From: Geothermobacter ehrlichii
GTDB taxonomy: Bacteria > Desulfobacterota > Desulfuromonadia > Desulfuromonadales > Geothermobacteraceae
Length of the DNA stretch: 24,000 bases
Direction: 5' to 3'
Assembly: GCF_008124615.1 (NCBI RefSeq)
Contig: NZ_VNIB01000017.1
Coordinates: forward strand, 22,253-46,252
A model generated the notes under the pieces. It saw only the letters and a program-made list of their open reading frames with translations. It made no database searches and was not told where the DNA came from. The position numbers and the translations under genes are program-made. Positions 4,449-24,000 of this stretch are shown here, in pieces (position 1 is the first letter of the stretch; every line of letters begins with the position of its first letter).

Positions 4449-4449
4449 T

Positions 4450-4613: not shown

Positions 4614-4645
4614 GTTCCGTATTCAGTCCAAAAACGGAGATTCCC

Positions 4646-6951: not shown

Positions 6952-7059
6952 TTCTGTTTGCCACTGAGGCACTGAGAGCCAGAGGTAATTCCAATCTTAT
7001 GCTTTGTGCCTTCGTGGTGAGATTCCAGATTTTTCCAAACTGAAACGAAGGGGGAATCC

Positions 7060-7647
7060 ATGTCCACCCAGACCAAAACCGAAACCGGAACCGAAACCGG
7101 AACCGAAACCGGAACCGAAGCTCTCGACGAGGGGATCCAGCTGCTGCATCGCCTCAGCAAAGAGGAGCTGATCGCCATCATCATCGACGACGCCAAGAAC
7201 TGGCTGGCGCACGACGGGCTCTGGTTTCAGGCGATCGAAAGGGCCCACGGCATGGAGGCCGCCATCGAGGCCGACCGGGCCGCCTGGGAGAAGTTCACCG
7301 TCATCGAGGCCAAAAGGATCATGGCGCGGCTCGGCATCGAGCCGGGCGGAGGGATTCCGGCCCTGCTCGAATGCCTGAAGCACCGCATGTACGCGCGGCT
7401 GAACCTGCAGCAGGCGATCGAGGTCAGCGACACCCGGGCCGTTTTTCGCATGGTCGACTGCCGGGTGCAGTCGGCGCGCAAACGCAAGGGACTGGACGAT
7501 TTCCCCTGCAAGTCGGTGGGTATCGTCGAGTACAGCGAGTTCGCCCGCACCGTCGACCCGCGGATCCGGACCCGCTGCGTTGCCTGTCCGCCCGATGCGC
7601 ATCCCGATGATTACTGGTGCGCCTGGGAATTCACCCTCGAGGGCTGA
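7060..7647 (+). CDS. Conserved hypothetical cytosolic protein, possibly DUF6125 / ATC-hydrolase-like, with an N-terminal (TETG)3 repeat and a C-terminal Cys cluster
   Basis: 195 aa ORF with RBS GGGGGA. It is soluble, has a helical-looking core (DGLWFQAIERAHGMEAAIEADRAAWEKFTVIEAKRIM) and five Cys in the last ~75 aa, including CVAC. The family assignment is from memory only. Confidence 0.7.
   Translation: MSTQTKTETGTETGTETGTEALDEGIQLLHRLSKEELIAIIIDDAKNWLAHDGLWFQAIERAHGMEAAIEADRAAWEKFTVIEAKRIMARLGIEPGGGIPALLECLKHRMYARLNLQQAIEVSDTRAVFRMVDCRVQSARKRKGLDDFPCKSVGIVEYSEFARTVDPRIRTRCVACPPDAHPDDYWCAWEFTLEG
7072..7119 (+). repeat. In-frame tandem repeat: 12-mer ACCGAAACCGGA x3.5 (underlying hexamer ACC-GRA x8), encoding TK-TE-TG-TE-TG-TE-TG-TE
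   Basis: Perfect copies at 7078-7089, 7090-7101 and 7102-7113, plus the half unit 7114-7119 and the degenerate ACCAAA at 7072-7077. Confidence 0.95.
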
Positions 7648-7662
7648 GGCGGCTGCGGTCCG

Positions 7663-8778: not shown

Positions 8779-8802
8779 GGGCGGCTGCCGCGGGAAAGGT
8801 GC

Positions 8803-9507
8803 TTACCGGCGATTGCCGAGAATGCGCAGCAGCATCAGGAACAGGTTGATGAAATCGAGATACAAGCGCAGGGCGCCGATGATGGCGGCTTTCTTGCGGC
8901 CGTCCTCGCTGGCGAAACCGGCCTCGCCGATCTGCTTGATCTTCTGGGTGTCGTAGGCGGTCAGGCCGACAAAGACGAAGACGCCGATGTAGCTGACGAC
9001 CCAGGTGATCATCGCGCTTTGCAGAAAGATGTTGACCAGCGAGGCGATGATGATACCGACCAGGCCCATGAAGAAGAAGCTGCCCCAGCCGGTCAGGTCG
9101 CGCCTGGTCGTGTAGCCGTAGACGCTCATGGCGGCGAAGGTGCCGGCGGCGATGAAGAAGGTGCTGGCGATGGAGCTGCTGGTGTAGACCAGGAAGATGG
9201 CGGCGAAGGTGACGCCGTTCAGCGCCGAGTAGAGCAGGAATATCAGGGTGGCGGTGGTGACGCCGATGCGGTTGATGGCCGCCGACAGGGCGATGACCAG
9301 GCCCAGCTCGCCGAAGATGAGGACGTAGAAGACCATCCTGTTGCCGAAGATCAGCCGCAGCAGGTCGGGGCTCGACAGGGTCAGCAGGGCAGCCAGGGCG
9401 GTCAGGGCCAGTCCGGCGGTCATCCAGCCGTAGACCCTGGGCAAAAAGCGGCTGGCGCTGCCGACGGTCGCGGTGGCGGTGATGATGGGCGGTTTCGGGT
9501 TCAGCAT
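8803..9507 (-). CDS. Bax-inhibitor-1 / YccA family inner-membrane protein
   Basis: 234 aa with about 7 TM segments. It has the typical BI-1 C-terminus (YDTQKIK...GALRLYLDFINLFLMLLRILG). AAGGAG RBS on the - strand at 9516-9521. This and the decarboxylase gene are the only convincing - strand genes. Confidence 0.9.
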   Translation of the reverse strand: MLNPKPPIITATATVGSASRFLPRVYGWMTAGLALTALAALLTLSSPDLLRLIFGNRMVFYVLIFGELGLVIALSAAINRIGVTTATLIFLLYSALNGVTFAAIFLVYTSSSIASTFFIAAGTFAAMSVYGYTTRRDLTGWGSFFFMGLVGIIIASLVNIFLQSAMITWVVSYIGVFVFVGLTAYDTQKIKQIGEAGFASEDGRKKAAIIGALRLYLDFINLFLMLLRILGNRR

Positions 9508-9560
9508 TGCTCAGGCTCCTTCTCGCTGCCCGTGACCGGATATCGCCGGTCCGGGGTTCA

Positions 9561-9589
9561 TTGGCATCCGGCAGTGAATCTGCTAACGT
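9561..9589 (+). promoter_or_regulatory. Candidate sigma-70 promoter for the enoyl-CoA hydratase gene
   Basis: TTGGCA-17 nt-TAACGT, about 40 nt upstream of the ATG at 9629. Based on hexamer match only. Confidence 0.3.
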
Positions 9590-9628
9590 CATTTCGTTGC
9601 CATTCTACACCTTCGAGGAGGAGCTGCA

Positions 9629-10444
9629 ATGACTGAAATGCCGCGACTGACCGATGCCCGGCTGACCTGCGAGAACCGGGTGGCCGAGCTGACCTTCGAT
9701 CGAGATGACGTTCGCAACGCCCTGACCGGCACCACCCTGGTCGAGGACATTATCGCCACCATCGACTGGGCCAACCGCAATTCCGACCTGTCGGTCCTGA
9801 TTTTGACCGGCGACGGCGCCGCCTTTTCGGCCGGCGGCAACGTCAAGCAGATGCGCGACCGCGAGGGGATCTTTTCCGGTTCGGTGCTGCAGATCCAGGA
9901 CCAGTACCGGCGCGGGATCCAGCAGTTGCCGCTGGCGATGCAGCGGGCGGAAATCCCGGTCATCGCCGCCGTCAACGGCCCGGCCATCGGCGCCGGCATG
10001 GATCTGGCCTGCATGTGCGACCTGCGCATCGGTTCCACCCGCGCCCTGTTCGGCGAAACCTTCCTCAATCTCGGCATCATCCCCGGTGACGGCGGCGCCT
10101 GGTTTCTACCCCGACTGGTCGGCGCCCAGCGGGCGGCCGAGCTGATTTTCAGCGGCCGCCTGGTCAAGGCCGACGAGGCCCTGGAGCTGGGACTGCTGCT
10201 GGAAGTGGTCGACCAGGAGGAGCTGCTGCCGCGCGCCCGCGAGCTGGCGGCGCGCATCGCCGCCCAGCCGCCGCAGGCCTTGCGCCTGGGCAAGCGGCTG
10301 CTCAGGCTGGGGCAGAAGATGGACTTGCCCGAGTTCCTCGACCTGTGCGCTGCCTTTCAGGCCATGGCGCACCAGACCGAGGACCATATCGAGGCGATCA
10401 ACGCCTTTCTGGAAAAGCGGCCGCCCCGTTTTCGCGGCTGCTGA
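9629..10444 (+). CDS. Enoyl-CoA hydratase/isomerase (crotonase superfamily)
   Basis: 271 aa with crotonase-fold motifs (VLILTGDGAAFSAGGNVKQM, PVIAAVNGPAIGAGMDLACMCDLRI). Strong RBS GAGGAGGA. Confidence 0.9.
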   Translation: MTEMPRLTDARLTCENRVAELTFDRDDVRNALTGTTLVEDIIATIDWANRNSDLSVLILTGDGAAFSAGGNVKQMRDREGIFSGSVLQIQDQYRRGIQQLPLAMQRAEIPVIAAVNGPAIGAGMDLACMCDLRIGSTRALFGETFLNLGIIPGDGGAWFLPRLVGAQRAAELIFSGRLVKADEALELGLLLEVVDQEELLPRARELAARIAAQPPQALRLGKRLLRLGQKMDLPEFLDLCAAFQAMAHQTEDHIEAINAFLEKRPPRFRGC

Positions 10445-10779
10445 AGCGGGAAAATTCCGGCCGACGAATCTGTCATTTGGTGGAGCGAAACAGGCGCCGT
10501 TGCCGGCATGGCGGGGGCGCAAGAGGTCTTTTAATGTCGGGCGGAATGGACTAGAATGCTCCCTCGTTTCACATGGACCTGACTCAGTGGGTTCATGCCG
10601 GACGAAGAGTGCACGTGCTTGGCCTGAACGCGTTTTCAGAAAATCCGAGGCGCACCCACAGGTTCGCCGGCGGTTTCTTGGAACCGCAGGCAGGTCAATG
10701 ACGCGCGCTATTCGCCGGCGATGAGCTCACTGAATTCAGGTTAAAGAAACACCCGGTACGGGTGCACGACGAGGGGCAG

Positions 10780-11367
10780 ATGGAAGACACGACATCGATG
10801 ATCCAGATCCGCTGGCACGGCCGCGGCGGTCAGGGGGCGATCACCGCCGCCAAGGTGGTGGCGAAAGCCGCGTTCGCCTCCGGTTACGGCGGGGTGGTGA
10901 TGGCGCCGACCTTCGGCACCGAGCGCCGCGGCGCGCCGGTCAGCACGTCGCTGAAGATCGCGCGGGAGACGATCCACGACCTGTCGCCGATCCGCGAGCC
11001 GGATATCGTGGTGGTTCTCGATCACCTGATTCTCAACGAGGTTGACGTGACCGTGGGGCTGAAGCCGGGCGGGCTGCTGGTGATCAACTCGCCGCATCCG
11101 CCAAGCCGGCACCGGCAGAAGGACTTTCGCGTGGCAGTGGCCAACGTCGCCCGCATAGGGGAGGAGGCCGGGTTGCGCAAGGGGATCGTCAACAGCGGTA
11201 TCATCGGCGTTCTCGGTCGCGCCAGCGGGCTGCTCGCCATTGACCGCCTGGCCGAATACATCGCCGAGGAGTTCGCCGACCGCCGGCCCGAACAGAACGT
11301 TCGTGCCGCCCGTCTCGCTTTTGAGGCGACCGAGATCTGCGAACCTGAGGGAGGCGCCCATGCCTGA
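10780..11367 (+). CDS. 2-oxoacid:ferredoxin oxidoreductase, gamma subunit (POR/VOR type)
   Basis: IQIRWHGRGGQGAITAAKVVA is the hallmark N-terminus of OFOR gamma subunits. The track ORF starts at GTG 10762. I prefer ATG 10780, which follows the RBS GAGGGG (10771-10776). The GTG lies inside the hairpin at 10750-10764. Confidence 0.85.
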   Translation: MEDTTSMIQIRWHGRGGQGAITAAKVVAKAAFASGYGGVVMAPTFGTERRGAPVSTSLKIARETIHDLSPIREPDIVVVLDHLILNEVDVTVGLKPGGLLVINSPHPPSRHRQKDFRVAVANVARIGEEAGLRKGIVNSGIIGVLGRASGLLAIDRLAEYIAEEFADRRPEQNVRAARLAFEATEICEPEGGAHA

Positions 11368-11671
11368 TTCCCGTTTCAAGATCATGACCTCCGCGGCGAC
11401 CTCCGGCCCCGGCGACGCCGGCCGTACCGGCTCCTGGCGGGTGGAGCGGCCGGTCATCGACTACAGCCGCTGTACGCCGGCCAGGACCGGCAGGCACGCC
11501 TGTCACCTGTGCTGGTTCTATTGCCCCGACGTCGCGGTCAGCAAGACCATCGAGCCGCAGTTCGATCTCGACTACTGCAAGGGATGTGGCATCTGTGCCG
11601 AGGAGTGTCCGGTCGGCGCCATCACCATGGTCGCCGAGGAGACCTTCGCCGAAGGAGGGGCCGATGAGTAA
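11360..11671 (+). CDS. 2-oxoacid:ferredoxin oxidoreductase, delta subunit (2x[4Fe-4S] ferredoxin)
   Basis: The in-frame ATG at 11360 follows the RBS GAGGGAGG and overlaps the gamma stop by 8 nt. It has the delta-type N-terminus GSWRVERPVID and the cluster motifs CxxCxxxCP and CKGCGICAEECP. Track ORF 11240..11671 is over-extended. Confidence 0.85.
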   Translation: MPDSRFKIMTSAATSGPGDAGRTGSWRVERPVIDYSRCTPARTGRHACHLCWFYCPDVAVSKTIEPQFDLDYCKGCGICAEECPVGAITMVAEETFAEGGADE

Positions 11672-12875
11672 CAAGTGCATCGATTCCGGCAACAATGCCG
11701 CCGCCCACGCCGCCCGCCTGGCCGGCGTCGAGGTGGTGGCCGCCTATCCGATAACGCCGCAGACGCCGCTGACCGAAAAGCTGTCGGAATGGGTGGCCAG
11801 CGGCGAGATGGACGCCGAGTACGTGGCGGTCGAAAGCGAGCACAGCGCCCTGGGGGTCTGCATCGGCGCCGCCAGTGCCGGCGTGCGGGCCTTTACCGCC
11901 ACCTCGGCCAACGGCCTGCTCTACATGAGCGAGCAGTTGCACTGGGCGGCCGGCGCCCGGCTGCCGCTGGTAATGTGCGTGGTCAACCGCGGGGTCGGAG
12001 CCCCCTGGTCGGTCTGGAACGACCATCAGGACGCCATGAGCCAGCGCGACACCGGCTGGATTCAGTTGTTCGTCAAGGATCACCAAGAGATCGTCGATGT
12101 CACCATCAAGGCCTTCCGCCTGGCCGAGGCGGTGCACATTCCGGTGATGGTCAATTACGACGGCTACTATCTGTCGCATACCTACATGCCCTTCGAGCTG
12201 CCCGACGCCGAGGCGGTGCGCGCGTTTCTGCCGCCTTACGTCTACAAGCACGCCCTCGATCCGCAGCGGCCGGAAAACCTCAATTCCGTCACCCTGCCCG
12301 ATGCCCGGCGCGACGCCGGCGGAGTGCTGCGCGGCGGCTACATGGACATCCGCCACAACCTGCAGCAGGAGATGCACCAGGCCCTTGCGGTCTGGGAAGA
12401 GATCGACGCCGACTACCGGCAGCGTTTCGGACGCGGTGGGGCGCCGGTGCTCGAGGCCTACCGCCTGGAGGATGCAGAGTTCGTGGTCGTGGCCATGGGG
12501 ACGCTGGCCAACCAGTTCCGCGACGTGGTCGACCGCCTGCGCCAGGAGGACGGCATCCGCGTCGGGGTGCTGGCGGTTCAGGTCTACCGGCCGTTCCCGG
12601 CCCGCCAGCTGGCGGAAGCCCTGCAGGCGGCCAGGGGCGTGATGGTTTTCGAAAAGGGACTCAGTTACGGACATCAGGGGGCGCTGTTCGCCGACGTCAA
12701 GTCGGCTCTCTATCCCTGGCCGGCCCGGCCGGTTCTGCGCAACTTCATCGTCGGCATTGGCGGCCGCGAAATTCCCACCAACGAACTCTGCCGGAACCTG
12801 AAGCAGGCCTGCGGTCAGGATGAACTGCCGCCCGAGGTGGCCGATACCCCCAACTGGATCGGATTGCAGCTATGA
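11664..12875 (+). CDS. 2-oxoacid:ferredoxin oxidoreductase, alpha subunit
   Basis: The start at ATG 11664 follows the RBS GGAGGGG and overlaps the delta stop. N-terminus GNNAAAHAARLAGVEVVAAYPITPQT..., then EHSALGVCIGAASAGVRAFTATSANGLLYM, typical of POR/VOR alpha. 403 aa. Confidence 0.9.
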   Translation: MSNKCIDSGNNAAAHAARLAGVEVVAAYPITPQTPLTEKLSEWVASGEMDAEYVAVESEHSALGVCIGAASAGVRAFTATSANGLLYMSEQLHWAAGARLPLVMCVVNRGVGAPWSVWNDHQDAMSQRDTGWIQLFVKDHQEIVDVTIKAFRLAEAVHIPVMVNYDGYYLSHTYMPFELPDAEAVRAFLPPYVYKHALDPQRPENLNSVTLPDARRDAGGVLRGGYMDIRHNLQQEMHQALAVWEEIDADYRQRFGRGGAPVLEAYRLEDAEFVVVAMGTLANQFRDVVDRLRQEDGIRVGVLAVQVYRPFPARQLAEALQAARGVMVFEKGLSYGHQGALFADVKSALYPWPARPVLRNFIVGIGGREIPTNELCRNLKQACGQDELPPEVADTPNWIGLQL

Positions 12876-13780
12876 GTGATACGCCAAAGACAACGGTCCT
12901 CAGCCTGACCGAAGAGGAATTCGTCCATCCGGGCAACCGGGCCTGCTCCGGATGCAGCATGGGGCTGCTCTACCGCATCGGGGCCAAGGCCCTGGGGCGG
13001 GACTGCATCTTCGTCGTTCCGCCGAGCTGCATGACCGTCATGCAGGGCCTCTACCCGGTTTCCGCCTCGCAGTTCCCGATCTTCAACTGCACCTTCGCTT
13101 CCACCGCCGCCGTCGCCACCGGCGTGCGCGCCGCCATGAAACGGCTCGGCAGGACGACCCAGGTGGTCGCCTGGGCCGGCGACGGCGGCACCTCGGATAT
13201 CGGCATCCAGGCCCTTTCCGGGGCTCTCGAGCGGGGCGAGGACATCATCTACATCTGCTACGACAACGAGGCCTACATGAACACCGGAGTGCAGCGCTCC
13301 GGCACCACTCCCTGCAGCAGCCTGACCACCACCACGCCCTTTACCGGCAAGGCGCAGGCGGCCAAGGACGTACCGGCCATCGTCGCCGCCCACAACCCGA
13401 CCTTTGTGGCCACCTGCTCCGCTTCCTATCCGCTCGATTTTCACGACAAGCTGCTCAGGGCCAAACAGATGCGCGGTCTGAAGTATTTCCACATCCAGAC
13501 TCCCTGTCCGCCCGGCTGGGGCTGCGAGGAGCGGCTGACCATCAAGATCGGGCGCATGGCGGTCGAGAGCGGACTGTTTGTCCTCTACGAGATCGAAAAC
13601 GGTGTGAAGCGTCTCTCCGAGCCCTCGGCCCGGCTGCTGAAGAAGGGGCGGCGTCCGGTGCGCGACTATCTCAAGTTGCAGGTGCGCTTCAGGCACATGA
13701 GCGACGAACAGATCGCCGCCCTGCAGGCGCAGGTCGACGCCAGGTGGGACGATTACCGGGAGGCTTTCGCCGACGACTGA
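12872..13780 (+). CDS. 2-oxoacid:ferredoxin oxidoreductase, beta subunit (TPP-binding)
   Basis: ATGA overlap with the alpha stop. It has the Cys motif GNRACSGCS, the TPP-binding motif GDGGTSDIGIQALSGA...YICYDNEAYMNTG and CPPGW. Confidence 0.9.
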   Translation: MSDTPKTTVLSLTEEEFVHPGNRACSGCSMGLLYRIGAKALGRDCIFVVPPSCMTVMQGLYPVSASQFPIFNCTFASTAAVATGVRAAMKRLGRTTQVVAWAGDGGTSDIGIQALSGALERGEDIIYICYDNEAYMNTGVQRSGTTPCSSLTTTTPFTGKAQAAKDVPAIVAAHNPTFVATCSASYPLDFHDKLLRAKQMRGLKYFHIQTPCPPGWGCEERLTIKIGRMAVESGLFVLYEIENGVKRLSEPSARLLKKGRRPVRDYLKLQVRFRHMSDEQIAALQAQVDARWDDYREAFADD

Positions 13781-13801
13781 CGCGAGCAGCGAACCATCGC
13801 C

Positions 13802-14671
13802 ATGAGCACTGTCTTTCTGAACGGAGAATTCATTCCCGCCGAACAGGCGAAGATTTCGGTCTTCGACCAGGGATTTCTCTACGGCGATGGCATCTACGAA
13901 AGCTTCCGTTCCGTCGGCGGGCGGCTCTACCAGTTTCCCCGCCATTACCAGCGTCTGCGGCAGTCGGCGGAGGCGCTCTGCTATCCCATGCCCTACAGCG
14001 AGCAGGAGCTGGAAAACATCCTGCTCATGCTGCGCCGCCGCAACCGCCTGCAGGACGCCTACTTTCGCATCACCATCACCCGGGGGCCGGGTCAGGTCGG
14101 CTTTCAGCGCCGGCTCGAAGGCGAACTGACCTGCCTGATCGTCGCCAGGGAGTTCCGGGAGTTTCCCGAAGAATGCTACCGGCAGGGCATCGCCCTGCGG
14201 GTCGCCCGCACCCGCCGCAACGCCCCCGAGGCGATCAATCCGAAAATCAAGTCGATCAGCAATCTCAACAGCCTGCTCGGCAAGCTCGAGGCGAAGGAGG
14301 CGGGCGTCTTAGAGGTGATCATGCTCAACAGCCGGGGGGAGGTCTGCGAGGGATCGGCCTCCAACATCTTCTGGACCCGTGACCACTGGGTCTTCACCCC
14401 CTCGGCGGCGACCGGGCTGCTCGAGGGTGTGACCCGCTCGACCATCATCCGGCTGTGCGAACAGGAGCTCGACCTGCGGGTCATCTGCGGCGAGTACCGG
14501 CTGCAGGACCTGCTCTTTTCCGACGAGGTCTTCATCACCTCCACCTCGCTGGAGGTGATGCCGGTGGTCCGGGTCGACGATTTCACCATCAACCAGGGGC
14601 GGGTCGGCCCCATTGCCCGCAGGCTGCGGCAGGCGCTGCACCGGGACATGGGCAAGACCGAACCCGCCTGA
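13802..14671 (+). CDS. Class IV (fold type IV) aminotransferase, branched-chain / D-amino-acid aminotransferase family
   Basis: 289 aa. Motifs: FLNGEFIPAEQAKISVFDQGFLYGDGIYE, a candidate PLP-lysine segment PKIKSISNLNSLL, and EGSASNIF. Same strand, 21 nt after the OFOR beta gene. Confidence 0.85.
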   Translation: MSTVFLNGEFIPAEQAKISVFDQGFLYGDGIYESFRSVGGRLYQFPRHYQRLRQSAEALCYPMPYSEQELENILLMLRRRNRLQDAYFRITITRGPGQVGFQRRLEGELTCLIVAREFREFPEECYRQGIALRVARTRRNAPEAINPKIKSISNLNSLLGKLEAKEAGVLEVIMLNSRGEVCEGSASNIFWTRDHWVFTPSAATGLLEGVTRSTIIRLCEQELDLRVICGEYRLQDLLFSDEVFITSTSLEVMPVVRVDDFTINQGRVGPIARRLRQALHRDMGKTEPA

Positions 14672-14739
14672 CAGATTGTTCTTTCACGGAGCTGGCGGCG
14701 GCGATGCCGGCAGACAGGATTTCCGAAGGGAGGAGAACC

Positions 14740-15324
14740 ATGGCGGACGCAAGAGTGGCAATCGGGCAAAAGATCAGGCAACTGCGCGACAAGAAGGGGC
14801 TTTCCCTCGAGCAGACGGCTGAAAAGGCGGAGATGTCGCCCGAGCTGCTGGCCGAAATCGAGGCGGGCAGGGTTTCACCGCCGCTGGGGCAGATCGTCGC
14901 TCTGGCCAATGCCTTCAAGGTGTCCCTCGGCGATCTCTTCGGCGACAGCGCCGACGCTCCCTACTGCATAGTCCGCAGCGAGCAGGGGCGGGCCGTGTCC
15001 CGTTTCGGCGAAACCCGCGACACCGCCGCCGGCTACAGCTACCAGTCTCTCGGTTTTCGCAAGCAGAACCGGCACATGGAGCCGTTTCTGGTCACCCTGA
15101 CTCCGGGGCAGGCGCCGAAGGAGCCGAACGGACATGACGGCGAAGAGATTCTGTTCGTGCTCGAAGGGCAGGTCGAGGTCAGCCTCGCCGGCCATACCGA
15201 CATTCTCAACGCCGGCGATTTCATCTACTACGATTCGACCCTGCCGCACATCGTTGCCTGCCACGGCGACCAGCCGGCGACGCTGTTTGCGGTGATCTAC
15301 GCCCGCAGGGACATGATTCTCTAG
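14740..15324 (+). CDS. XRE-family HTH transcriptional regulator with a C-terminal cupin domain
   Basis: The in-frame ATG at 14740 follows the RBS GGGAGGAG. The N-terminus IGQKIRQLRDKKGLSLEQTAEKAEMSPELLAEIEAG is an HTH_3 motif. The C-terminal cupin has GHDGEEILFVLEGQVEV...GDFIYYDSTLPH. Track ORF 14455..15324 is over-extended into the aminotransferase gene. Confidence 0.85.
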   Translation: MADARVAIGQKIRQLRDKKGLSLEQTAEKAEMSPELLAEIEAGRVSPPLGQIVALANAFKVSLGDLFGDSADAPYCIVRSEQGRAVSRFGETRDTAAGYSYQSLGFRKQNRHMEPFLVTLTPGQAPKEPNGHDGEEILFVLEGQVEVSLAGHTDILNAGDFIYYDSTLPHIVACHGDQPATLFAVIYARRDMIL

Positions 15325-16933: not shown

Positions 16934-16987
16934 CACCCTGAATCAGGATCACGACCCGTTTCCGGAACCTTTCCCGGCGAGGTGCGC

Positions 16988-18556
16988 ATGAGATCGAACA
17001 TCAAGCTCAGATTGCAGGTTGTCGACCGGGTCGGCGTGATGGCCGAAATCGCCCGGGTGCTGGCCGAGGACGACGTCAACATCCTCAGCATGGAGGTGGA
17101 AAAGAACGCGGGTCTGACCCATGTCTTTCTCGAGCTGGAAACCGGGGACGGCTCCCCCGGCGAGGCCGCGATTCTCGATGCCCTGGCCGCCCTGCCCGAG
17201 GTGGAGGACCTTGCCGGCATCCGCACCATGCCGCAGGAGAGGCGGCAGCGGCGCTTTCAGGTGGTGCTCGACAGCGTCAGCGACGGCATCCTGTCGATCA
17301 ACGAGGACGGCGAGCTGACCACCATCAACCGGGTCGCCCGCGCCATGCTCGGCCTGGGGGAGGCCGATGTCGTCGGCCGCAACCTGCGCGATCTCGATCT
17401 GTCCGACACCAGCCTGCTGGCCTGCCTGGAAGGGCGGACCTACCGCAACGTCAAGCGCAGCATGACGCGCGGCCACCGGCGTTACCAGTATCTGGCCAGC
17501 GGTGAGGTGATCCGCGATTCCCGCGGAAGGATCGTCGGCGCCGTGGAGGTGCTGCAGGATCTGCGGGGCCTTCGCGAGGTCGCCAGCGCCGTCGCCAGCG
17601 AGCCGCAGGTCACCTTCGACGACATGGTCGGCCAGAGTCCGGGTCTGCGGCAGGCGATCGTCTTCGCCGAGAAGATTGCGCCGACCGACGGCATCGTCTG
17701 CATCCGGGGCGAGAGCGGCACCGGCAAGGAGCTGTTCGCCAGCGCCATTCATGTCGCCAGCGGTTGCCGGGGGCCGTTCATTCCGGTCAATTGTGCCGCC
17801 CTGCCGGAAAACCTGCTGGAAAGCGAGCTGTTCGGCTATGTCGGCGGCGCTTTTTCCGGGGCGCGCAAGGAAGGGCGGGCCGGTCTGTTCGAGGCGGCCA
17901 GGGACGGGACCATCTTTCTCGACGAAATCGCCGAGATGCCGCCGGCGCTGCAGGCCAAGATGCTGCGGGTCATTCAGGACGGCAAGCTGCGGCGCATCGG
18001 CAGCAACGAGGAGATCACCGTCAACGCGCGGGTCATCACCGCCACCAACCGCGACCTGGAGCAGCTGGTCAGGGAAGGCCGGTTTCGTGAAGACCTCTTC
18101 TACCGCATCAATCTCTTTCCCATCCACATTCCGCCATTGCGTGAACGGCGGGAGGACATCCCCCTGCTGGCGGAGCATTTCCTGTTTCAGGTCAACGCCC
18201 GTCTCGGGCTGCGTGCCCGGCGGCTGACCGAGGACGCCCTGGCCAAGCTGACGGCACATCGCTGGCCGGGCAACGTCCGCGAACTGCGCAACGTCATCGA
18301 GCGGGCGGCGATTCTCAGCGGCAGCGAGCGCATCAGCAGCGACAGCATCCGTTTCAGTTACGAGCTCGGGCATGCGGACGGCGCGTCCCCGCCGGAAATG
18401 GGGCGGCAGTCCCTGGCCGAACAGGTCGGACAGCTGGAGCGGCGCATCATCGCCGAGGTCCTGCGCCTGGCGCCGAGCAAGCGCCAGGCGGCGCGAATGC
18501 TGGGGCTGTCGCATACCGGCCTGCTGAAGAAGCTGAAGAAGTACGGCATGGGATGA
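16988..18556 (+). CDS. Sigma-54-dependent transcriptional activator, TyrR/PhhR-like architecture (ACT - PAS - AAA+ - Fis-type HTH)
   Basis: ACT-like N-terminus (LRLQVVDRVGVMAEIARVLAEDDVNILSMEV), then a PAS segment (FQVVLDSVSDGILSINEDGELTTINRVA). AAA+ Walker A GESGTGKELFA, sigma-54 contact loop GAFSGA, Walker B IFLDEI, and WPGNVRELRNVIERA. C-terminal HTH RQAARMLGLSHTGLLKKLKKYG. ATG 16988 has GAGG 5 nt upstream; GTG 16982 is an alternative start. Confidence 0.9.
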   Translation: MRSNIKLRLQVVDRVGVMAEIARVLAEDDVNILSMEVEKNAGLTHVFLELETGDGSPGEAAILDALAALPEVEDLAGIRTMPQERRQRRFQVVLDSVSDGILSINEDGELTTINRVARAMLGLGEADVVGRNLRDLDLSDTSLLACLEGRTYRNVKRSMTRGHRRYQYLASGEVIRDSRGRIVGAVEVLQDLRGLREVASAVASEPQVTFDDMVGQSPGLRQAIVFAEKIAPTDGIVCIRGESGTGKELFASAIHVASGCRGPFIPVNCAALPENLLESELFGYVGGAFSGARKEGRAGLFEAARDGTIFLDEIAEMPPALQAKMLRVIQDGKLRRIGSNEEITVNARVITATNRDLEQLVREGRFREDLFYRINLFPIHIPPLRERREDIPLLAEHFLFQVNARLGLRARRLTEDALAKLTAHRWPGNVRELRNVIERAAILSGSERISSDSIRFSYELGHADGASPPEMGRQSLAEQVGQLERRIIAEVLRLAPSKRQAARMLGLSHTGLLKKLKKYGMG

Positions 18557-18839: not shown

Positions 18840-18855
18840 TGGCAGGTTGCTTGCT
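18840..18855 (+). promoter_or_regulatory. Sigma-54 (-24/-12) promoter
   Basis: TGGCAG-gttgc-TTGCT matches TGGCAC-N5-TTGCW with correct GG/GC spacing. It lies 37 nt upstream of ATG 18892. Confidence 0.75.
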
Positions 18856-18891: not shown

Positions 18892-21243
18892 ATGCCAGCG
18901 ACAAAAGGAATCAGAGATATGGGCCAGTCGAATCCGAATCTGCCGGGCAGCTCTCTTGCGGGCGGACTTTTGCCGTCATCGGTGCTGTCGGACGGCAAGT
19001 TCGCCGTCGGCCCCACCGCCGACATTCCTTCCGAACTCGAAATCAGGGTTCATGGCCGTGGCGGCCAGGGCGGAGTGACCTGCGCCAAGCTGATCGCCAT
19101 GCTCTTCGCCGGCCGGGACCGGTTTGTCCAGACCTTCGGCGACTACGCTTCCGAGCGTTCGGGGGCGCCGGTCAGGGCCTACACCAGGGTCAGCGACCGG
19201 CCGGTACGTAACCGCAACAAGGTCTACCGTCCGGACCAGCTGCTGATTCTCGATTCCGGCCTGGTCGGCCCGGACATCCTGGCCGGGCTGTCGCCCGGCG
19301 CCCTGGTTCTGCTCAACGGCGACGGGGGGCTGGATGCCATCGACGATCTGTTCGCCGAGTATCGTGTGGCGGTGGTCGACGCCACCGCCATCGCCCGCGA
19401 ATACGGCATCGGCAGCCGGTCCGTGGTGATTGTCAACACCACCATGGTCGGTGCCTATGCCCGCCTCGTCGGCTTCGGGTTCGACGATGTCGAACGGGCC
19501 TACCGCAGTCTCGGTCTGGAAGCGGACCTGGAGGCGGCACGGCGCGCCTACCGTGAGGTGCGGCTGCGGGATGTCTTCCGCCTGCCGGAAAAGACCGCCG
19601 AGCCGTCGCCGGTGGCCGTTCCCCGGGTGCCGCCGCTGACCGGGCAGGTCTGTGATCCGCCGATGCCGCTGAAGACCGGCTCCTGGCGTACCCAGCGGGT
19701 CGAATACCAGGAGCGGCCGGCACCCTGCAGTGTCGGCTGTCCGGCCGGCAACGACGTGGTCGGTTTCATCCAGGCCCTGCGCAGCGACGGCATCGAGGCC
19801 GCCGCCCGCATCCTGCAGCGGACCCAGCCGTTGCCTTCGGTCTGCGGCCGGGTCTGTCCGGCGCCCTGCATGAGTCGCTGCAATCGCATCGAGTACGACG
19901 GGGCGGTCAACATCCGCAGCCTCGAGCGCTGGGTCGGCGATCACCATGCCGGATTGCTGCTGCAACCCGAGCGGCCGAAGGTGAAAAAGTCCTTTGCAGT
20001 GGTGGGAAGCGGGCCGGCGGGGCTGAGCGCCGCCTGGACCCTGGCCCTGGCCGGGCATGACGTCACCCTCTACGAGCGGGAAGATCAGCTTGGCGGGCTG
20101 CTGCGTTACGGCATCCCCGCTTACCGGCTGCCGCCGGAGCGGCTCGAGCGGGACATCGCCCGCATTCTCTCTCTCGGCGTCGAGGCGCGAACGGGCTGCC
20201 GGATCGACAAGACGGCCCTGCGCGAGCTGCTGGCGGAGCATGACGGCCTGCTGCTGGCGACCGGTCTCGATGTCTGGCGGCGGGCGGCGGTGCCCGGCGA
20301 GGATCTTGCCGGTGTCGAGCAGGGGCTCGCCTACCTGGCGCGTGCCAGGCAGGGCGGCGATGTCCGCCTGTCGGGGCACGTGGTAGTCGTCGGCGGCGGC
20401 AATTCGGCGATCGACGCCGCCCGGACCGCATTGCGCAACGGGGCCGACCGGGTGACCCTGGCCTATCGCCGCGGCCGCGCCGAGATGCCGGCGATCGACT
20501 CGGAAATCGAGGAGGCCGTCGAGGAAGGGGTGGAGCTGCTGCTGTATCGCCAGCCGGTGGCCTTTGCCGGCGACGGGCGGGTGCAGGCCGTGGAGCTGGC
20601 CGAAGTCGAGCTGGGCCCCAGGGGAGAGGACGGCCGCCGGAAGCCGGTGGTGACCGACCGCGTCGCCCGTCTCGATTGCGACCGGATCCTGCTCTGCCTG
20701 GGACAGAGCGCCGATCTCGGCCTGCTGCCGGAGGACTGGCGGCCGGCGGGGCGGCGCGTGGTGAGCGGCGGTTCCGTTCTGCCGGTGGTCTGCTGCGGCG
20801 ATGTCGCCATCGCGGCCGGAACGGTGACTCACGCCATCGGCGATGGCCGACGCGCCGCCCGCGCGCTGCTGGCCGGAACCGGCATCGAGGCCGTCGAGGC
20901 GGCGGAGCGGGAAGACGGCATCGCGGTCACCGCCGAGGAGATCCATTTCGATGCCTTTGTACGGACACAGCCGGCCCACGAGAGGCATCTGCCGCCGGCC
21001 GAACGGCTGTCGGGACGGGAGGCCAACCTGGGCCTCGCCGACCCGGCCGAGGCCGATCGCTGCTTCTCCTGCGGCCATTGCACCCGCTGTGACACCTGTC
21101 TCATCTACTGCCCTGAAGGGGTCATCTGCCGGGATGGCGGTGGCTACGCCATCGACGGGGAGCAGTGCAAGGGCTGCGGCATCTGCGCCCAGGAGTGCCC
21201 CCGTCACGCCCTTCGGGCCGCCGCCATGCCGAGCCGGAGCTGA
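18892..21243 (+). CDS. Fusion protein: OFOR gamma subunit + GltD/NfnB-like NAD(P)H:FAD oxidoreductase + OFOR delta-type 2x[4Fe-4S] ferredoxin
   Basis: Gamma domain IRVHGRGGQGGVTCAKLIA from about nt 19042 to 19566. Delta-like GSWRTQRVEY at about 19681. GltD-like Fe-S segment CPAGNDVVGFI...LPSVCGRVCPAPCMSRC. Dinucleotide folds FAVVGSGPAGLSAA...GGLLRYGIPAYRLP and VVVVGGGNSAIDAART. C-terminal CTRCDTCLIYCP...CKGCGICAQECP from 21061. The start is ambiguous: ATG 18892, ATG 18919 or GTG 18982. The TTG at 18847 in the track lies inside the promoter and is rejected. Confidence 0.85.
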   Translation: MPATKGIRDMGQSNPNLPGSSLAGGLLPSSVLSDGKFAVGPTADIPSELEIRVHGRGGQGGVTCAKLIAMLFAGRDRFVQTFGDYASERSGAPVRAYTRVSDRPVRNRNKVYRPDQLLILDSGLVGPDILAGLSPGALVLLNGDGGLDAIDDLFAEYRVAVVDATAIAREYGIGSRSVVIVNTTMVGAYARLVGFGFDDVERAYRSLGLEADLEAARRAYREVRLRDVFRLPEKTAEPSPVAVPRVPPLTGQVCDPPMPLKTGSWRTQRVEYQERPAPCSVGCPAGNDVVGFIQALRSDGIEAAARILQRTQPLPSVCGRVCPAPCMSRCNRIEYDGAVNIRSLERWVGDHHAGLLLQPERPKVKKSFAVVGSGPAGLSAAWTLALAGHDVTLYEREDQLGGLLRYGIPAYRLPPERLERDIARILSLGVEARTGCRIDKTALRELLAEHDGLLLATGLDVWRRAAVPGEDLAGVEQGLAYLARARQGGDVRLSGHVVVVGGGNSAIDAARTALRNGADRVTLAYRRGRAEMPAIDSEIEEAVEEGVELLLYRQPVAFAGDGRVQAVELAEVELGPRGEDGRRKPVVTDRVARLDCDRILLCLGQSADLGLLPEDWRPAGRRVVSGGSVLPVVCCGDVAIAAGTVTHAIGDGRRAARALLAGTGIEAVEAAEREDGIAVTAEEIHFDAFVRTQPAHERHLPPAERLSGREANLGLADPAEADRCFSCGHCTRCDTCLIYCPEGVICRDGGGYAIDGEQCKGCGICAQECPRHALRAAAMPSRS

Positions 21244-21248
21244 TAGCG

Positions 21249-22412
21249 ATGCGAAACGAACTGATCAGCGCCAATCATGCCGCGGCGATGGCCGCGATCC
21301 TGGCCGCCCGGGCCAACCGGAGCGGACGCGGTTTCTGTGCCGGCGTCTATCCGATCACGCCGTCGACCGAGTGCATGGAGCTGCTCTGCTCCCGGCAGAT
21401 CGAAAAGGGGCAGGTGGTTCGCGTCGAGGGCGAACACAGCGCCATGGCGGTCTGCATCGGCAGCGTCGCCGCCGGTGCCCGCTCCTTCACCGCCACCTCG
21501 TCCAACGGTCTGGCCTACATGGCCGAGAACGTGGTCACCGCCGCCCTGTTGCGGCTGCCGATGGTGATGATGGTCGCCAACCGCACCCTGGGACCGCCCT
21601 GGAACATCTGGGCCGATCATGGTGACAGCCTGCTGCTGCGCGATTCCGGCTGGCTGCAGTTCTACTGCGCCGACAACCAGGAGGTGCTCGACACCATCCT
21701 GTTCGCCTACCGGCTCGGCGAGGACCCCCGGGTGATGCTGCCGGTGATGGTCTGCCAGGACGGTTTCGTCCTCTCCCACACCATGGCCCAGACCCTGGTG
21801 CCGGAACAGGAGCTGGTCGACCGTTTCCTGCCGCCGCTCGAGGTGCCGCACCGCCTGAACGAGCAGCCGCACGCCCTGGGCTCGGTGGTGCTGCCGCAGC
21901 AGACCGAGGTGCTGCGTCGCCAGCACCACGAAGCGATGAACACCGCCCTCGCCATCTATCCGCAACTGCAGCGCGAGTTCGCCGCCGTCTTCGGCCGGCC
22001 GATCGCCGATCCGCTGGTCGGCTACCGGTACGAGGACGCCGAACTGCTGATCCTGTCGATGGGAACCCTGGCCAGCACCGTGGAGCGGGCCGTGGACCGG
22101 CTGCGAGAGCGGGGCGTGAAGGCCGGCGGCCTGCGGGTCCGCCTGTTCCGTCCCTTCCCGGCGCGGCAGCTGCGCGAGCTGCTCGGCCGGCCGGCCCGGG
22201 TGGCGGTGCTCGACCGGGACATCAGCCCCGGCTTCGGCGGTGTGCTCTGGGGTGAGTGCCGCAGCTGCGTTTCCGGGGATGTCCTGATGCAGAACTACAT
22301 GCTCGGTCTTGGCGGCGGCGACGTCAGGCCGGAGCACGTCGAACAGCTGGTCGACGATCTGCTGGGCCGCGAGACGGCCGGCGAGCCGATGGTGATGGAG
22401 GTGGGCGCATGA
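21249..22412 (+). CDS. 2-oxoacid:ferredoxin oxidoreductase, alpha subunit (second copy)
   Basis: Start at ATG 21249 (MRNELISANHAAAMAA...), 5 nt after the fusion gene's stop. Motifs YPITPSTE and EHSAMAVCIGSVAAGARSFTATSSNGLAYM parallel the first alpha subunit. Track ORF 21165..22412 is over-extended. Confidence 0.9.
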   Translation: MRNELISANHAAAMAAILAARANRSGRGFCAGVYPITPSTECMELLCSRQIEKGQVVRVEGEHSAMAVCIGSVAAGARSFTATSSNGLAYMAENVVTAALLRLPMVMMVANRTLGPPWNIWADHGDSLLLRDSGWLQFYCADNQEVLDTILFAYRLGEDPRVMLPVMVCQDGFVLSHTMAQTLVPEQELVDRFLPPLEVPHRLNEQPHALGSVVLPQQTEVLRRQHHEAMNTALAIYPQLQREFAAVFGRPIADPLVGYRYEDAELLILSMGTLASTVERAVDRLRERGVKAGGLRVRLFRPFPARQLRELLGRPARVAVLDRDISPGFGGVLWGECRSCVSGDVLMQNYMLGLGGGDVRPEHVEQLVDDLLGRETAGEPMVMEVGA

Positions 22413-23305
22413 CTGAAGTTGCGGAAAGAACGATTCCCGTGCAGGAGCGTCCTGCGGGTCGTCCCCTGTTGCGTCCCGGCAATACCAACTGCGGCGGCTG
22501 CGGCATGTCGATCGCCCTGCAGATGTTCGGCCGCGAGCTGGCCGGGCAGCCGGTGCAGCTGGTGATCCCGGCCTGCTGCGGCGCCGTGGCGGCCGGCTCC
22601 TATCCCTTCACCGCCTTCGGCGTGCCGGTGGTGCTGTCGACCTTCGCCTCGCCGGCGGCGGTCGCCACGGGACTGGCCAGGGTGGCGGCCCTCAACGAGG
22701 AACCGATCCGGGTGGTCTGCTGGGCCGGCGACGGCGGCACCTATGACATCGGCATGGGGACCCTGTCGGCGGCGGCGGAACGGAACGAGGATGTCCTCTA
22801 CATCTGCTACGACAACGAGATCTACGGCAACACCGGCGGCCAGCGCTCCTCGGCGACGCCGCTCGGCGCCGCCACCACCAGCACGCCGGTCGGCAAACCG
22901 GAAGTGAAGAAGGACATTCTCGCCGTGATGGCGGCGCACCGCATCCCCTACGCGGCCAGCGTCTCGCTGGCGCATCCCGAGGACGCCGGCCGCAAGTTCC
23001 GCCAGGCGCTGGCGGCCCGCGGTTTCCGCTTTCTGCACATCCTCTCTCCCTGTCCCACCGGCTGGAAATCTGAGCCGGCGCACGGCATCCAGCTGATCCG
23101 GCTGGCGGTGCAGTCCGGACTCTACCCGGTGCTGGAAATCCGCGACGGGCGGCAGGTCACCATCAACGTCGAGCCCGACTTCTCCGACCTGGCCCTGGCC
23201 GAATATCTCGCCATGCAGGGGCGTTTCCGCAAGTCGGGGGTGACCGCCATGGTGCTGCGCGACGCCATCCGGCAGCACTGGGAGCATCTGCGGCGCCAGG
23301 CCTGA
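22409..23305 (+). CDS. 2-oxoacid:ferredoxin oxidoreductase, beta subunit (TPP-binding, second copy)
   Basis: ATGA overlap with the alpha stop. Motifs GNTNCGGCG, GDGGTYDIGMGTLSAA...YICYDNEIYGNTGGQ and CPTGW. Track ORF 22256..23305 is over-extended. Confidence 0.9.
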   Translation: MTEVAERTIPVQERPAGRPLLRPGNTNCGGCGMSIALQMFGRELAGQPVQLVIPACCGAVAAGSYPFTAFGVPVVLSTFASPAAVATGLARVAALNEEPIRVVCWAGDGGTYDIGMGTLSAAAERNEDVLYICYDNEIYGNTGGQRSSATPLGAATTSTPVGKPEVKKDILAVMAAHRIPYAASVSLAHPEDAGRKFRQALAARGFRFLHILSPCPTGWKSEPAHGIQLIRLAVQSGLYPVLEIRDGRQVTINVEPDFSDLALAEYLAMQGRFRKSGVTAMVLRDAIRQHWEHLRRQA

Positions 23306-23450: not shown

Positions 23451-23486
23451 TCCCATAACATCCCGATGTTAAAGGAGAATCAACCC

Positions 23487-24000
23487 ATGTCTGCTGACAG
23501 TAAACTTGCGGGCCGCGTTCGCCAGCTGCGCGAAGAGCGGCAGCTGACCATCGAACAGCTGGCCGAGCAGAGCCGGTGCCATGTCGACGTGCTGACCCGT
23601 ATTGAGGCCGGGGAACTGGTCCCCTCGCTGACGCCGCTGATGAGCATCGCCCGCGCCCTCGGCGTCCGGCTCGGAACCCTGCTCGACGACGAGCCGCATG
23701 ACGGCCCTGCCGTGGTGAAGAAGGGGCAGTCGCCGGCCGTGATCCGCTTTTCCGGCAAGGACCCGGAAGCCCGCCGGAGCAATCTCGATTTCTACGCCCT
23801 GGGAGTGGGGAAGAAGGACCGGCACATGGAGCCCTTCGTCATCGACGTGCAGCCGCGCGAGGGGGACGAGCCGCCCCTGTCGTCGCACGAAGGAGAGGAG
23901 TTTCTCTATGTGCTTGAGGGCTGCATCGAGGTGAGGCTGGGCAAGACCGGCTACCGGCTGGAGGCCGGCGAGAGCATCTACTACGACTCGATCGTGCCGC
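23487..24000 (+). CDS. XRE-family HTH + cupin transcriptional regulator (second copy), 3' end outside the window
   Basis: Absent from the supplied ORF track because it has no stop in the window. I translated it by hand from ATG 23487 (RBS AAAGGAG at 23471-23477): MSADSKLAGRVRQLREERQLTIEQLAEQSRCHVDVLTRIEAGELVPSL...KKDRHMEPFVIDV...HEGEEFLYVLEGCIEVRLGKTGYRLEAGESIYYDSIVP. It is co-linear with the regulator at 14740..15324 (shared RHMEPF, EGEE/DGEE, VLEG, YYDS). Confidence 0.85.
   Translation, partial: MSADSKLAGRVRQLREERQLTIEQLAEQSRCHVDVLTRIEAGELVPSLTPLMSIARALGVRLGTLLDDEPHDGPAVVKKGQSPAVIRFSGKDPEARRSNLDFYALGVGKKDRHMEPFVIDVQPREGDEPPLSSHEGEEFLYVLEGCIEVRLGKTGYRLEAGESIYYDSIVP

Follow-up and report, generated by a model that had tools for sequence, protein, structure and literature searches.

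The fusion gene and its operon

The stretch of DNA analyzed here, called the window, comprises 24,000 nt of Geothermobacter ehrlichii contig NZ_VNIB01000017.1 (positions 22,253 to 46,252, forward strand). It carries a three-gene operon of the 2-oxoacid:ferredoxin oxidoreductase (OFOR) type, in which the first gene encodes a gamma subunit, a delta subunit and a flavoprotein related to GltD and NfnB as one polypeptide, and the following two genes encode the alpha and beta subunits (Table 1). Only 5 bases separate the stop of the fusion gene from the start of the alpha gene, and we verified in the sequence that the alpha and beta genes, which come next, overlap at ATGA, as an initial annotation of this DNA had described. 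In agreement with that annotation, no separate gamma or delta gene comes after them; the next gene encodes a helix-turn-helix (HTH)-cupin regulator.

Table 1. Features of the fusion operon and its immediate surroundings (positions in the window)
Feature	Position	Strand	Evidence or remark
Fusion gene, 774 aa: gamma, delta N-terminal arm, permuted GltD/NfnB-like flavoprotein, delta 2x[4Fe-4S]	18919..21243	+	
OFOR gamma (domain III) part, residues ~38-220	19030..19578	+	Pfam POR, TIGR02175
Delta (PorD) N-terminal arm LKTGSWRTQRVEYQERPAP, residues 251-269	19669..19725	+	Conservation, chimera test
GltD/NfnB-like body, residues 270-665: Fer4_20 segment from third Cys, FAD fold GSGPAG, NADP(H) fold GGGNSAID...YRR	19726..20913	+	
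Relocated GltD N-terminal segment (...EANLGLADPAEADRCFSC), residues 671-718, with Cys715 and Cys718	20929..21072	+	
Delta-type 2x[4Fe-4S] domain, C721/724/727/731 and C750/753/756/760, residues 719-774 and stop	21073..21243	+	
OFOR alpha, 387 aa	21249..22412	+	POR_N, E 1.5e-56; PFOR_II, E 4.1e-27
OFOR beta, 298 aa	22409..23305	+	TPP_enzyme_C, E 9.5e-22
Sigma-54-dependent activator (ACT-PAS-AAA+-HTH, TyrR-like), directly upstream	16982..18556	+	Sigma54_activat, E 1.7e-63; PAS, ACT, HTH_50
Sigma-54-type promoter-like site TGGCAGGTTGCTTGC	18840..18854	+	-24 GG / -12 GC spacing
HTH-cupin transcription regulator, after beta, runs off the window	23466..24000	+	HTH_31, HTH_3, Cupin_2; start inferred

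The open reading frame (ORF) of the fusion gene is unbroken on the plus strand from three candidate starts (18847, 18892 and 18919) to position 21243. Starting at 18892 yields the 783-aa protein that had originally been proposed, and starting at 18919 yields 774 aa. Because ATG 18919 is preceded by AAGGA 9 nt upstream, and because the 774-aa length matches that of a Geothermobacter database protein with 100% identity to the ORF (P0001, '2-oxoacid:acceptor oxidoreductase gamma subunit'), we regard 18919 as the more likely start. The frame proposed originally is thus intact, but its start probably has to be moved. Unless 783-aa numbering is stated, residues are numbered from here on as in the 774-aa protein. 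The N-terminal leader, which had been flagged as atypical, is variable or missing among homologues, and its residues 1-33 are predicted to be disordered in an AlphaFold2 (AF2) model, with a predicted local distance difference test (pLDDT) score of <50.

Pfam and NCBIfam scans agreed with the initial annotation in finding gamma, the N-terminal arm of delta, a GltD-like body and the delta ferredoxin domain in one polypeptide. Pfam detected, in 783-aa numbering, POR gamma at residues 57-220 (E 1.9e-23), Fer4_20 at residues 277-352 (E 2.1e-17), Pyr_redox_2 at residues 368-612 (E 1.3e-23) and a Fer4 dicluster at residues 729-775. The NCBIfam model PorC_KorC (TIGR02175) matched residues 49-223 with 119 bits against a cut-off of 81.1, and GltD-type NCBIfam families matched the protein at E values of 1e-50 to 1e-135. 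The motifs IRVHGRGGQGG, GSWRTQRVEY, PCSVGCP, GRVCPAPCMSRC, GSGPAGLSAA and GGGNSAID were all found in the translation, together with two C-terminal Cys motifs. The gamma part is 31% identical to the free gamma subunit of operon 1, a conventional OFOR operon of the window, and the AF2 model reached pLDDT values of 85 to 97 across most of the flavoprotein body.

A flavoprotein module within the predicted delta subunit

The proposal that the flavoprotein is inserted within delta was borne out by conservation and by profile scores. The N-terminal arm of delta is marked in the fusion protein by the PorD motif KTGSWR, and residues L251, T253, G254 and W256 of the arm are invariant across 24 homologues, as are all eight cysteines of the C-terminal ferredoxin domain. 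This domain has PorD_Arch and PorD_KorD as its best families, matches the delta subunit of a pyruvate:ferredoxin oxidoreductase (PFOR; 9bt4_G, E 1e-7) and is 41% identical to the delta subunit of operon 1. When scored alone, the C-terminal 104 aa reached 47.7 bits against PorD_KorD (TIGR02179) and covered profile positions 25-73. When residues 236-269 (ending LKTGSWRTQRVEYQERPAP) were joined to residues 721-774, the score increased to 66.2 bits (positions 10-73), exceeding the cut-off of 60.05, and the score against PorD_Arch rose from 48.7 to 68.5 bits. Control chimeras carrying a shuffled arm, a reversed arm or an unrelated segment gave 55.8, 52.6 and 48.3 bits, respectively, against PorD_KorD. 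Furthermore, unfused homologues start at the arm with a PorD-like N-terminus, MDKPFAITLDPGSSLANRTGSWR, and some relatives retain the classical porCDAB order described below. By these comparisons, the GltD/NfnB-like module sits inside the predicted delta subunit, between its N-terminal arm and its first cluster motif.

Circular permutation of the GltD/NfnB-like module

The Fe-S domain of canonical GltD, NfnB and DPD proteins opens with EAxRCxxC....CxxxCP, and the first two Fe-S ligands of PfNfnI-B are Cys42 and Cys45 (PMC12221290). The Fe-S segment of the fusion protein opens only at APC270xxxC274PAGN, and alignments to PDB entries begin at NfnB residue 49. The stretch F.EV..GL....EAxRC715xxC718 is placed after the flavoprotein body, just before the delta-type CxxCxxCxxxCP. 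We rescored with profiles a de-permuted construct, in which residues 671-718 were placed ahead of residues 266-665. Scores increased by 9 to 19 bits on Fer4_20 (65.5 to 84.0 bits, with coverage changing from profile positions 30-108 to 19-108) and on four canonical GltD models: gltA TIGR01316 (249.0 to 263.0 bits; 32-445 to 9-445), NF009414 (268.1 to 286.6 bits; 337-745 to 298-745), TIGR01318 (211.3 to 225.3 bits; 48-461 to 37-461) and TIGR01317 (171.4 to 180.4 bits; 52-311 to 5-311). No gain was obtained with shuffled or reversed 671-718 segments. Residues 681-710 have an AF2 pLDDT of ~84 and therefore fit a part of the folded flavoprotein module.

Judged by these profiles, the GltD module of the fusion protein is circularly permuted. 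This accounts for the PCSVGCP motif, which the initial annotation had correctly noted to be shorter than the expected four-Cys motif, since the two missing cysteines are the relocated Cys715 and Cys718. Because Cys270/274 and Cys715/718 are both predicted to ligate the module's own Fe-S domain, the two ends of the module must lie close to each other. Such close ends would make insertion into a host protein possible and would also place the module clusters beside the first delta cluster (Cys721-731). In Foldseek searches, the model matched NfnB and GltD at E values of 1e-27 to 1e-31, with 557 to 599 columns aligned to StnC/NfnABC relatives compared to ~425 aligned to NfnB; overall, Foldseek gave no information that the sequence search had not already provided.

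The permuted module also exists apart from the delta fusion, since stand-alone GltD-like proteins at two other loci (L076 and L080) share both of its ends, starting with APCMxACPA and ending with EAxRCLRCY. In these proteins (L076, 7518-9458; L080, 7551-9479), which end exactly at EAxRCLRCY and are encoded after complete gamma-delta-alpha-beta operons, the N-terminus is extended by a further domain of ~170 aa that contains the Cys motif SCGECSV. They apparently represent another, uncharacterized way of attaching a permuted NADPH module to an OFOR.

Distribution and gene order

A survey of genomes for this architecture, suggested as a check by the initial annotation, found the design to be widespread rather than confined to the Geothermobacter genome. 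More than 120 full-length homologues (722 to 837 aa, 52 to 90% identical) share the same domain list, and the mean column identity over 24 members is 62%. The fused form was found in Geothermobacter, Geopsychrobacter, Anaeromyxobacter, Noviherbaspirillum, Propionivibrio, Rhodocyclaceae, Planctomycetota, Desulfomonilaceae and Myxococcaceae. A 300-aa query covering the gamma/GltD junction, searched against 1.84 billion cluster representatives, retrieved 52 matches at E ≤ 1e-30, and ~20 of these 52 are full-length proteins (700 to 790 aa, 50% clustering level) that span the junction.

We surveyed gene order in one genome per species by tblastn with the window proteins, followed by a check of frames and stops; by this check, 12 loci first counted as fusions by tblastn have a separate upstream gamma gene. 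The gene orders form a series. At L076 and L080, gamma, delta, alpha and beta are followed by a GltD-like gene without a delta domain. The order gamma, alpha, beta, [arm-GltD-delta] was seen at ~45 loci, with taxa including Actinomycetota, Rhodoferax, Accumulibacter, Chromatiaceae, Sutterella, Gleimia and Varibaculum. The order gamma, [arm-GltD-delta], alpha, beta (L009, L012, L014-L017, L034, L048, L060, L065, L070 and L073) corresponds to the classical porCDAB order with the insertion within the delta gene. Finally, [gamma-arm-GltD-delta], alpha, beta was found at L001-L006, L008, L010, L011 and in the window. Since no separate delta gene was present in the surveyed operons of the fused type or of either arm-GltD-delta type, the chimeric protein would have to serve as delta.

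The unfused family is very large (at least 8000 candidates at E ≤ 1e-30), is very abundant in Burkholderiales, Rhodocyclaceae and Actinomycetota, and bears only generic names ('NAD(P)-binding protein', 'glutamate synthase' or 'OFOR delta subunit'). In a neighbor-joining tree of the flavoprotein core, built without support values, the L010 and L011 fusions (Melioribacter and Lewinellaceae) stand apart from the clade of the window and group with unfused gamma-[arm-GltD-delta]-alpha-beta operons, which suggests at least two independent origins of the gamma fusion. The three-gene module, usually accompanied by an HTH-cupin gene, occurs elsewhere in unrelated gene neighborhoods and is in this sense autonomous; in Propionivibrio, for example, it adjoins genes for a TRAP transporter, a Zn-alcohol dehydrogenase and an acetyl-CoA hydrolase/transferase. 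None of the curated families matched names the gamma-GltD-delta architecture, no solved structure with it was retrieved by a PDB sequence search or by Foldseek, and in the searchable full-text literature we found no description of this fusion or of an arm-GltD-delta protein as an OFOR subunit.

Predicted cofactors and electron acceptor

Sixteen cysteines outside gamma and E336 are invariant in the 24 homologues. The ligands in the Fer4_20 segment of the GltD body are C270, C274, C313, C317, C321 and E336. Because C309 is not conserved in unfused relatives, the GltD-type ligand set probably consists of seven cysteines and the glutamate, as in NfnB. E336 aligns with the position of StnC Lys170 (mapped via the numbering of 9bov_A as a proxy for StnC), which has been equated with the Glu ligand of the FAD-proximal cluster of NfnB (PMC10482914), numbered Glu126 (PMC12221290). 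The cofactor inventory likely comprises two GltD-type clusters, two delta-type clusters, one beta cluster, FAD and thiamine pyrophosphate (TPP). Two further cysteines, likewise invariant in the 24 homologues, are left unexplained by the predicted clusters: C55 in gamma (VTCAK, ~19081) and C587 in the flavoprotein body (LxCD, ~20677).

The motifs GxGPAG, GGGNxAxD and YRR are also invariant across these homologues. R518 of the YRR motif aligns with Arg325 of PfNfnI-B, which contacts NADP(H) (PMC12221290). Owing to the conservation of YRR, the acceptor is probably NADP+ rather than NAD+.

Alpha and beta subunits and possible substrates

The beta subunit contains the TPP motif GDGG...N (GDGGTYDIG...YDNEIYGNTGGQ) and the Cys ligands CGGC, PACC and SPCP. 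Both alpha and beta are predicted to belong to the POR/VOR clade, with PorA/VorA and VorB/PorB as the nearest models. Alpha scored 357 bits against PorA_Arch (cut-off, 550) and 287 bits against a VorA-type model, also below its cut-off; beta scored 303 bits against NF008818 and 271 bits against PorB (cut-off, 405 for each). Our best guess for the substrate is pyruvate, 2-oxobutyrate or branched-chain 2-oxoacids. Hints come only from genes for a class IV aminotransferase and a Liv-type transporter, which lie in the window without adjoining the fusion operon, and from the acetyl-CoA hydrolase/transferase gene beside the module in Propionivibrio.

Comparison with known systems

A close counterpart of the fusion protein outside its own architecture is NF009410/PRK12771, a family of free arm-GltD-delta proteins of ~540 to 566 aa that aligns with residues 261-775 (783-aa numbering), starting from TGSWR. 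The window protein reached 452.3 bits over profile positions 32-561 of 566, against a cut-off of 516, and is apparently a divergent NF009410 relative with an added gamma domain. An NF009410-type protein at L022 (7947-9575) has the same N-terminal arm, two-Cys start, EAxRCxxC and delta-type domain as the window protein. Genes for proteins of this type lie downstream of those for gamma, alpha and beta, in loci that, like the fusion operon, lack a delta gene of their own. The proteins differ in lacking the gamma domain, being encoded unfused in the orders gamma-alpha-beta-X or gamma-X-alpha-beta, and they have no assigned function.

Stand-alone GltD-like proteins that carry this set of cofactors act as ferredoxin:NADP+ oxidoreductases and do not conserve energy (PMC12221290). 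Those of the Cac_0764 type combine Fer4_20 and Pyr_redox_2 and bind FAD and two [4Fe-4S] clusters; they are nonbifurcating, use NADP(H), lack Arg333 and have no nfnA neighbor (PMC12221290). The window protein resembles them in lacking nfnA and in carrying Ile where Arg333 would be; the Cac_0764-type enzymes are free proteins with a canonical N-terminus (Cys42/Cys45 first) and a soluble ferredoxin donor, whereas the module described here is permuted and lies within the ferredoxin-like subunit of an OFOR.

The best sequence and fold matches were StnC (8oh5) and the NfnA subunits of NfnABC (9n5u and 9bov), with E values of 3e-79 to 1e-65. The two-Cys start PCxxxCPA of the window protein is shared by 9n5u_A and 9bov_A. 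StnC is likewise an Fe-S protein with an inserted GltD module (aa 102-565), which follows an N-terminal domain of 101 aa; the FAD of this module is nonbifurcating, and the module simply hands electrons from NADPH to the Fe-S chain (PMC10482914). The host protein of StnC is NuoG/FdhF-like and belongs to a transhydrogenase, whereas the host here is the delta subunit of an OFOR; the proximal-cluster ligand is Lys/Cys in StnC and Glu (E336) in the window protein.

The NADP+-dependent 2-oxoglutarate oxidoreductase (KGOR) of Azoarcus evansii, the subject of work by Ebenau-Jehle, Boll and Fuchs in 2003, is reportedly NADP+ specific, with subunits of ~63, 62 and 37 kDa, and contains FAD, TPP and Fe-S clusters; from these reported sizes, its core would be of the two-subunit KorA/KorB type. 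Like the enzyme proposed here, it is an OFOR that reduces NADP+ via an extra Fe-S flavoprotein subunit. It consists of three separate subunits, whereas here gamma is fused to a flavoprotein/delta chimera and alpha and beta are of the POR/VOR clade. The initial annotation had cited KorABC as a precedent, and this parallel holds, since KGOR-alpha of the NADP+-dependent enzyme has been placed in the GltD/NfnB family by phylogeny (PMC10134865).

The PadEFGHI phenylglyoxylate:NAD+ oxidoreductase of A. evansii consists of OFOR gamma, delta, alpha and beta plus an extra subunit, and is named NADH dependent in NCBIfam; it uses another reductase, and its subunits are separate, unlike the fused gamma, flavoprotein and delta of the window. 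The PadE, PadF, PadG and PadI models matched the corresponding parts with scores far below their cut-offs (104/300, 52/150, 242/700 and 159/700, respectively), and PadH did not appear among the top 25 models for the fusion protein, whose E values were all ≤ 3e-11. We thus rejected a PadH-type epsilon subunit as an identity for the flavoprotein.

The pyruvate:NADP+ oxidoreductase (PNO) of Euglena and Cryptosporidium is a single-chain PFOR covalently joined to an NADP+-reducing C-terminal FMN/FAD domain of the cytochrome P450 reductase (CPR) type. It follows the same logic as the window enzyme, a PFOR joined to an NADP+-reducing flavoprotein, with a different reductase; Pfam detected no PNO-type flavodoxin/FNR (CPR-like) domain in the three proteins. 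The 'delta' subunit of oxalate oxidoreductase (5c4i_B, NF045790) is a single chain in which, as in the fusion protein, gamma is followed by the arm and the ferredoxin domain of delta; NF045790 aligns both with the C-terminal ferredoxin domain of the fusion protein and with its residues 76-284. The oxalate enzyme is ferredoxin dependent and differs in having no flavoprotein insertion.

Proposed reaction and alternative interpretations

We consider it probable that the three genes encode a self-contained, nonbifurcating 2-oxoacid:NADP+ oxidoreductase of the POR/VOR clade that has no need for free ferredoxin. Alpha and beta would carry out a TPP- and CoA-dependent oxidative decarboxylation of the 2-oxoacid to acyl-CoA. 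Two electrons would pass from TPP via the [4Fe-4S] cluster of beta to the two delta-type clusters, and from there to the two [4Fe-4S] clusters of the inserted GltD/NfnB-like module. These would deliver them to FAD, which would gather both electrons and reduce NADP+; free ferredoxin would not be required, and the flavin would not bifurcate. The E0' values are ~-500 mV for acyl-CoA + CO2/2-oxoacid and -320 mV for NADP+. Since the 2-oxoacid couple lies so far below NADP+, the oxidative direction would be the only easy one. This electron path is our inference, as are the preference for NADP+, the oxidative direction and the independence from ferredoxin.

Several points weigh against such an enzyme. 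Gene content is the sole basis for its predicted independence from ferredoxin. The delta clusters may be exposed at the surface and reduce free ferredoxin as well, and the A. evansii KGOR was reportedly proposed to feed both ferredoxin and NADP+. In the AF2 model, the ferredoxin domain reached a pLDDT of only ~45, and the linker between gamma and the arm was likewise predicted with low confidence. The window protein falls below the cut-off of NF009410, and alpha and beta fall below all curated NCBIfam cut-offs, so that no substrate-specific equivalog can be assigned to them. Moreover, the Glu ligand E336 and the FAD-contacting R403 are both retained as in bifurcating NfnB, so that on sequence alone bifurcation keeps a small probability.

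It is possible, though rather unlikely, that the enzyme has two acceptors, with the delta clusters still reducing free ferredoxin and the GltD module acting as a tethered ferredoxin:NADP+ oxidoreductase that would divert electrons or balance them between ferredoxin and NADP(H), possibly reversibly. The delta-type domain does retain all eight cysteines of an ordinary ferredoxin-reducing delta subunit, the stand-alone homologues of the module are ferredoxin-docking ferredoxin:NADP+ oxidoreductases (PMC12221290), and a conventional four-subunit OFOR is also encoded in the window. However, covalent insertion beside the first delta cluster would make intramolecular transfer by far the shortest route, and no ferredoxin gene adjoins the module in its stand-alone contexts. 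Many of the hosts are also respiratory, including Noviherbaspirillum and Anaeromyxobacter for the fused form and Burkholderiales and Actinomycetota for the unfused form.

The initial annotation had raised the possibility that the module is part of a bifurcating or confurcating enzyme, which we now regard as very unlikely. The FAD would then split or merge electron pairs and allow the enzyme to couple energy, linking 2-oxoacid oxidation or NADPH-driven 2-oxoacid synthesis to a second acceptor or donor of different potential. In one version, oxidation of NADPH would send one low-potential electron into the OFOR, driving reductive carboxylation, and the other to a high-potential acceptor; in another, oxidation of the 2-oxoacid would jointly reduce NADP+ and a second carrier. 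Either would make this the first bifurcating 2-oxoacid oxidoreductase. In addition to retaining E336 and R403, the module belongs to the NfnB/GltD family, and its nearest solved relatives sit in bifurcating complexes. Yet it departs from bifurcating NfnB in all three respects that distinguish the latter (PMC12221290). Arg333 of PfNfnI-B, fully conserved in bifurcating NfnB but not in monofunctional ferredoxin:NADP+ oxidoreductases (PMC12221290), aligns with Ile526, which is invariant in the 24 homologues. Neither the operon nor the rest of the window contains an nfnA-like or HydBC-like gene, and the gene directly upstream encodes a sigma-54 activator. The extended N-terminus ahead of Cys42/Cys45 is missing at that place, the equivalent segment having been moved to residues 671-718. 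In addition, the homologous FAD of StnC, which is among the closest solved relatives, is explicitly nonbifurcating (PMC10482914), and the module is found as a three-gene unit in unrelated contexts.

It appears still less probable that the GltD module uses NADPH to maintain or repair O2-sensitive clusters, or that it reduces polysulfide or disulfide in the manner of SudA-type relatives. GltD-family modules do serve many acceptors, as seen from the diversity of the clade (PMC10134865), unfused relatives are extremely abundant in aerobic and facultative lineages, and the invariant C55 and C587 would await a role. Against this, there is no extra substrate-binding domain, alpha and beta are the sole conserved partners, and the insertion point beside the delta clusters argues for in-line electron transfer. 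Lastly, an assembly or frameshift artifact that joined separate gamma, GltD and delta genes, for which one might cite the relatives that have gamma as a gene of its own, is ruled out by the >120 continuous full-length homologues from many assemblies and phyla, by the junction-spanning cluster representatives and by a GC content at third codon positions (GC3) of 0.84 that is even along the whole ORF; the split ORF envisaged as a possible refutation by the initial annotation thus finds no support.

Regulatory genes and other parts of the window

The sigma-54-dependent activator encoded directly upstream is a probable regulator of the fusion operon, and the module is likewise preceded by sigma-54 activator genes at L009, L017, L048 and L062. 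Between the activator gene and the fusion gene, the promoter-like site TGGCAGGTTGCTTGC ends 65 nt before ATG 18919. The pattern TGGCA-N6-TTGC has no other match in the window, where 0.22 matches are expected by chance, and at least one match occurred in 17 of 100 shuffles; as a promoter, the site is a weak candidate on its own. A gene with HTH_3/HTH_31 and Cupin_2 domains lies directly 3' of beta at L001, L002, L003, L005, L081, L082 and L084, which belong to distant taxa, and the HTH-cupin protein is probably a dedicated regulator of the flavoprotein-type OFOR.

An HTH-cupin paralogue follows the first OFOR cluster of the window (~14700-15324). The longest ORF for it (14455-15324) shares ~200 nt with the 3' end of the gene for the class IV aminotransferase (13802-14671); since the HTH domain begins only at ORF residue 103, this regulator probably starts later. 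Other genes of the window encode the conventional gamma-delta-alpha-beta OFOR, the class IV aminotransferase, the Liv-type ABC transporter, PaaK-like ligases, a DUF6125 protein, a family III CoA-transferase, an enoyl-CoA hydratase and a malonyl-CoA decarboxylase. In the delta subunit of operon 1 (11360-11671, plus strand), the first cluster motif is degenerate, RCTPARTGRHACHLCWFYCP, with a 9-residue spacer compared to CxxCxxCxxxCP; the second is normal.

The island at positions 1-15324 is mostly syntenic with positions 1-13989 of L081 from Geopsychrobacter electrodiphilus. Shared between the two are genes for the ABC transporter, a PaaK-like CoA ligase, DUF6125, the family III CoA-transferase, the conventional OFOR, enoyl-CoA hydratase, an HTH-cupin protein, the fused OFOR and a second HTH-cupin protein. 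Present in the window only are Bax1-I (8803-9507, minus strand), the class IV aminotransferase, the malonyl-CoA decarboxylase (minus strand) and the sigma-54 activator.

Implications

Because the A. evansii KGOR provides a precedent for the enzyme class, the advance made here is architectural and distributional rather than one of new chemistry; what is new is the predicted permutation of the GltD module and the architecture and distribution of an OFOR carrying an NADPH flavoprotein. The permuted cassette, whose ends lie at its own Fe-S domain, looks, together with the insertion in StnC, like a reusable 'NADPH plug' for iron-sulfur proteins, and it could serve in engineering as a compact route from a 2-oxoacid to acyl-CoA and NADPH. 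OFORs are usually annotated and modeled as ferredoxin-reducing enzymes of anaerobes. If electrons are indeed delivered directly to NADP+, the predicted carrier of pyruvate or amino acid oxidation would be NADPH, not ferredoxin, in many genomes, which for the fused form include those of Desulfuromonadales, Myxococcota, Planctomycetota and Noviherbaspirillum. This would also help to explain the presence of OFORs in respiratory and facultative bacteria that have no obvious low-potential ferredoxin sinks.

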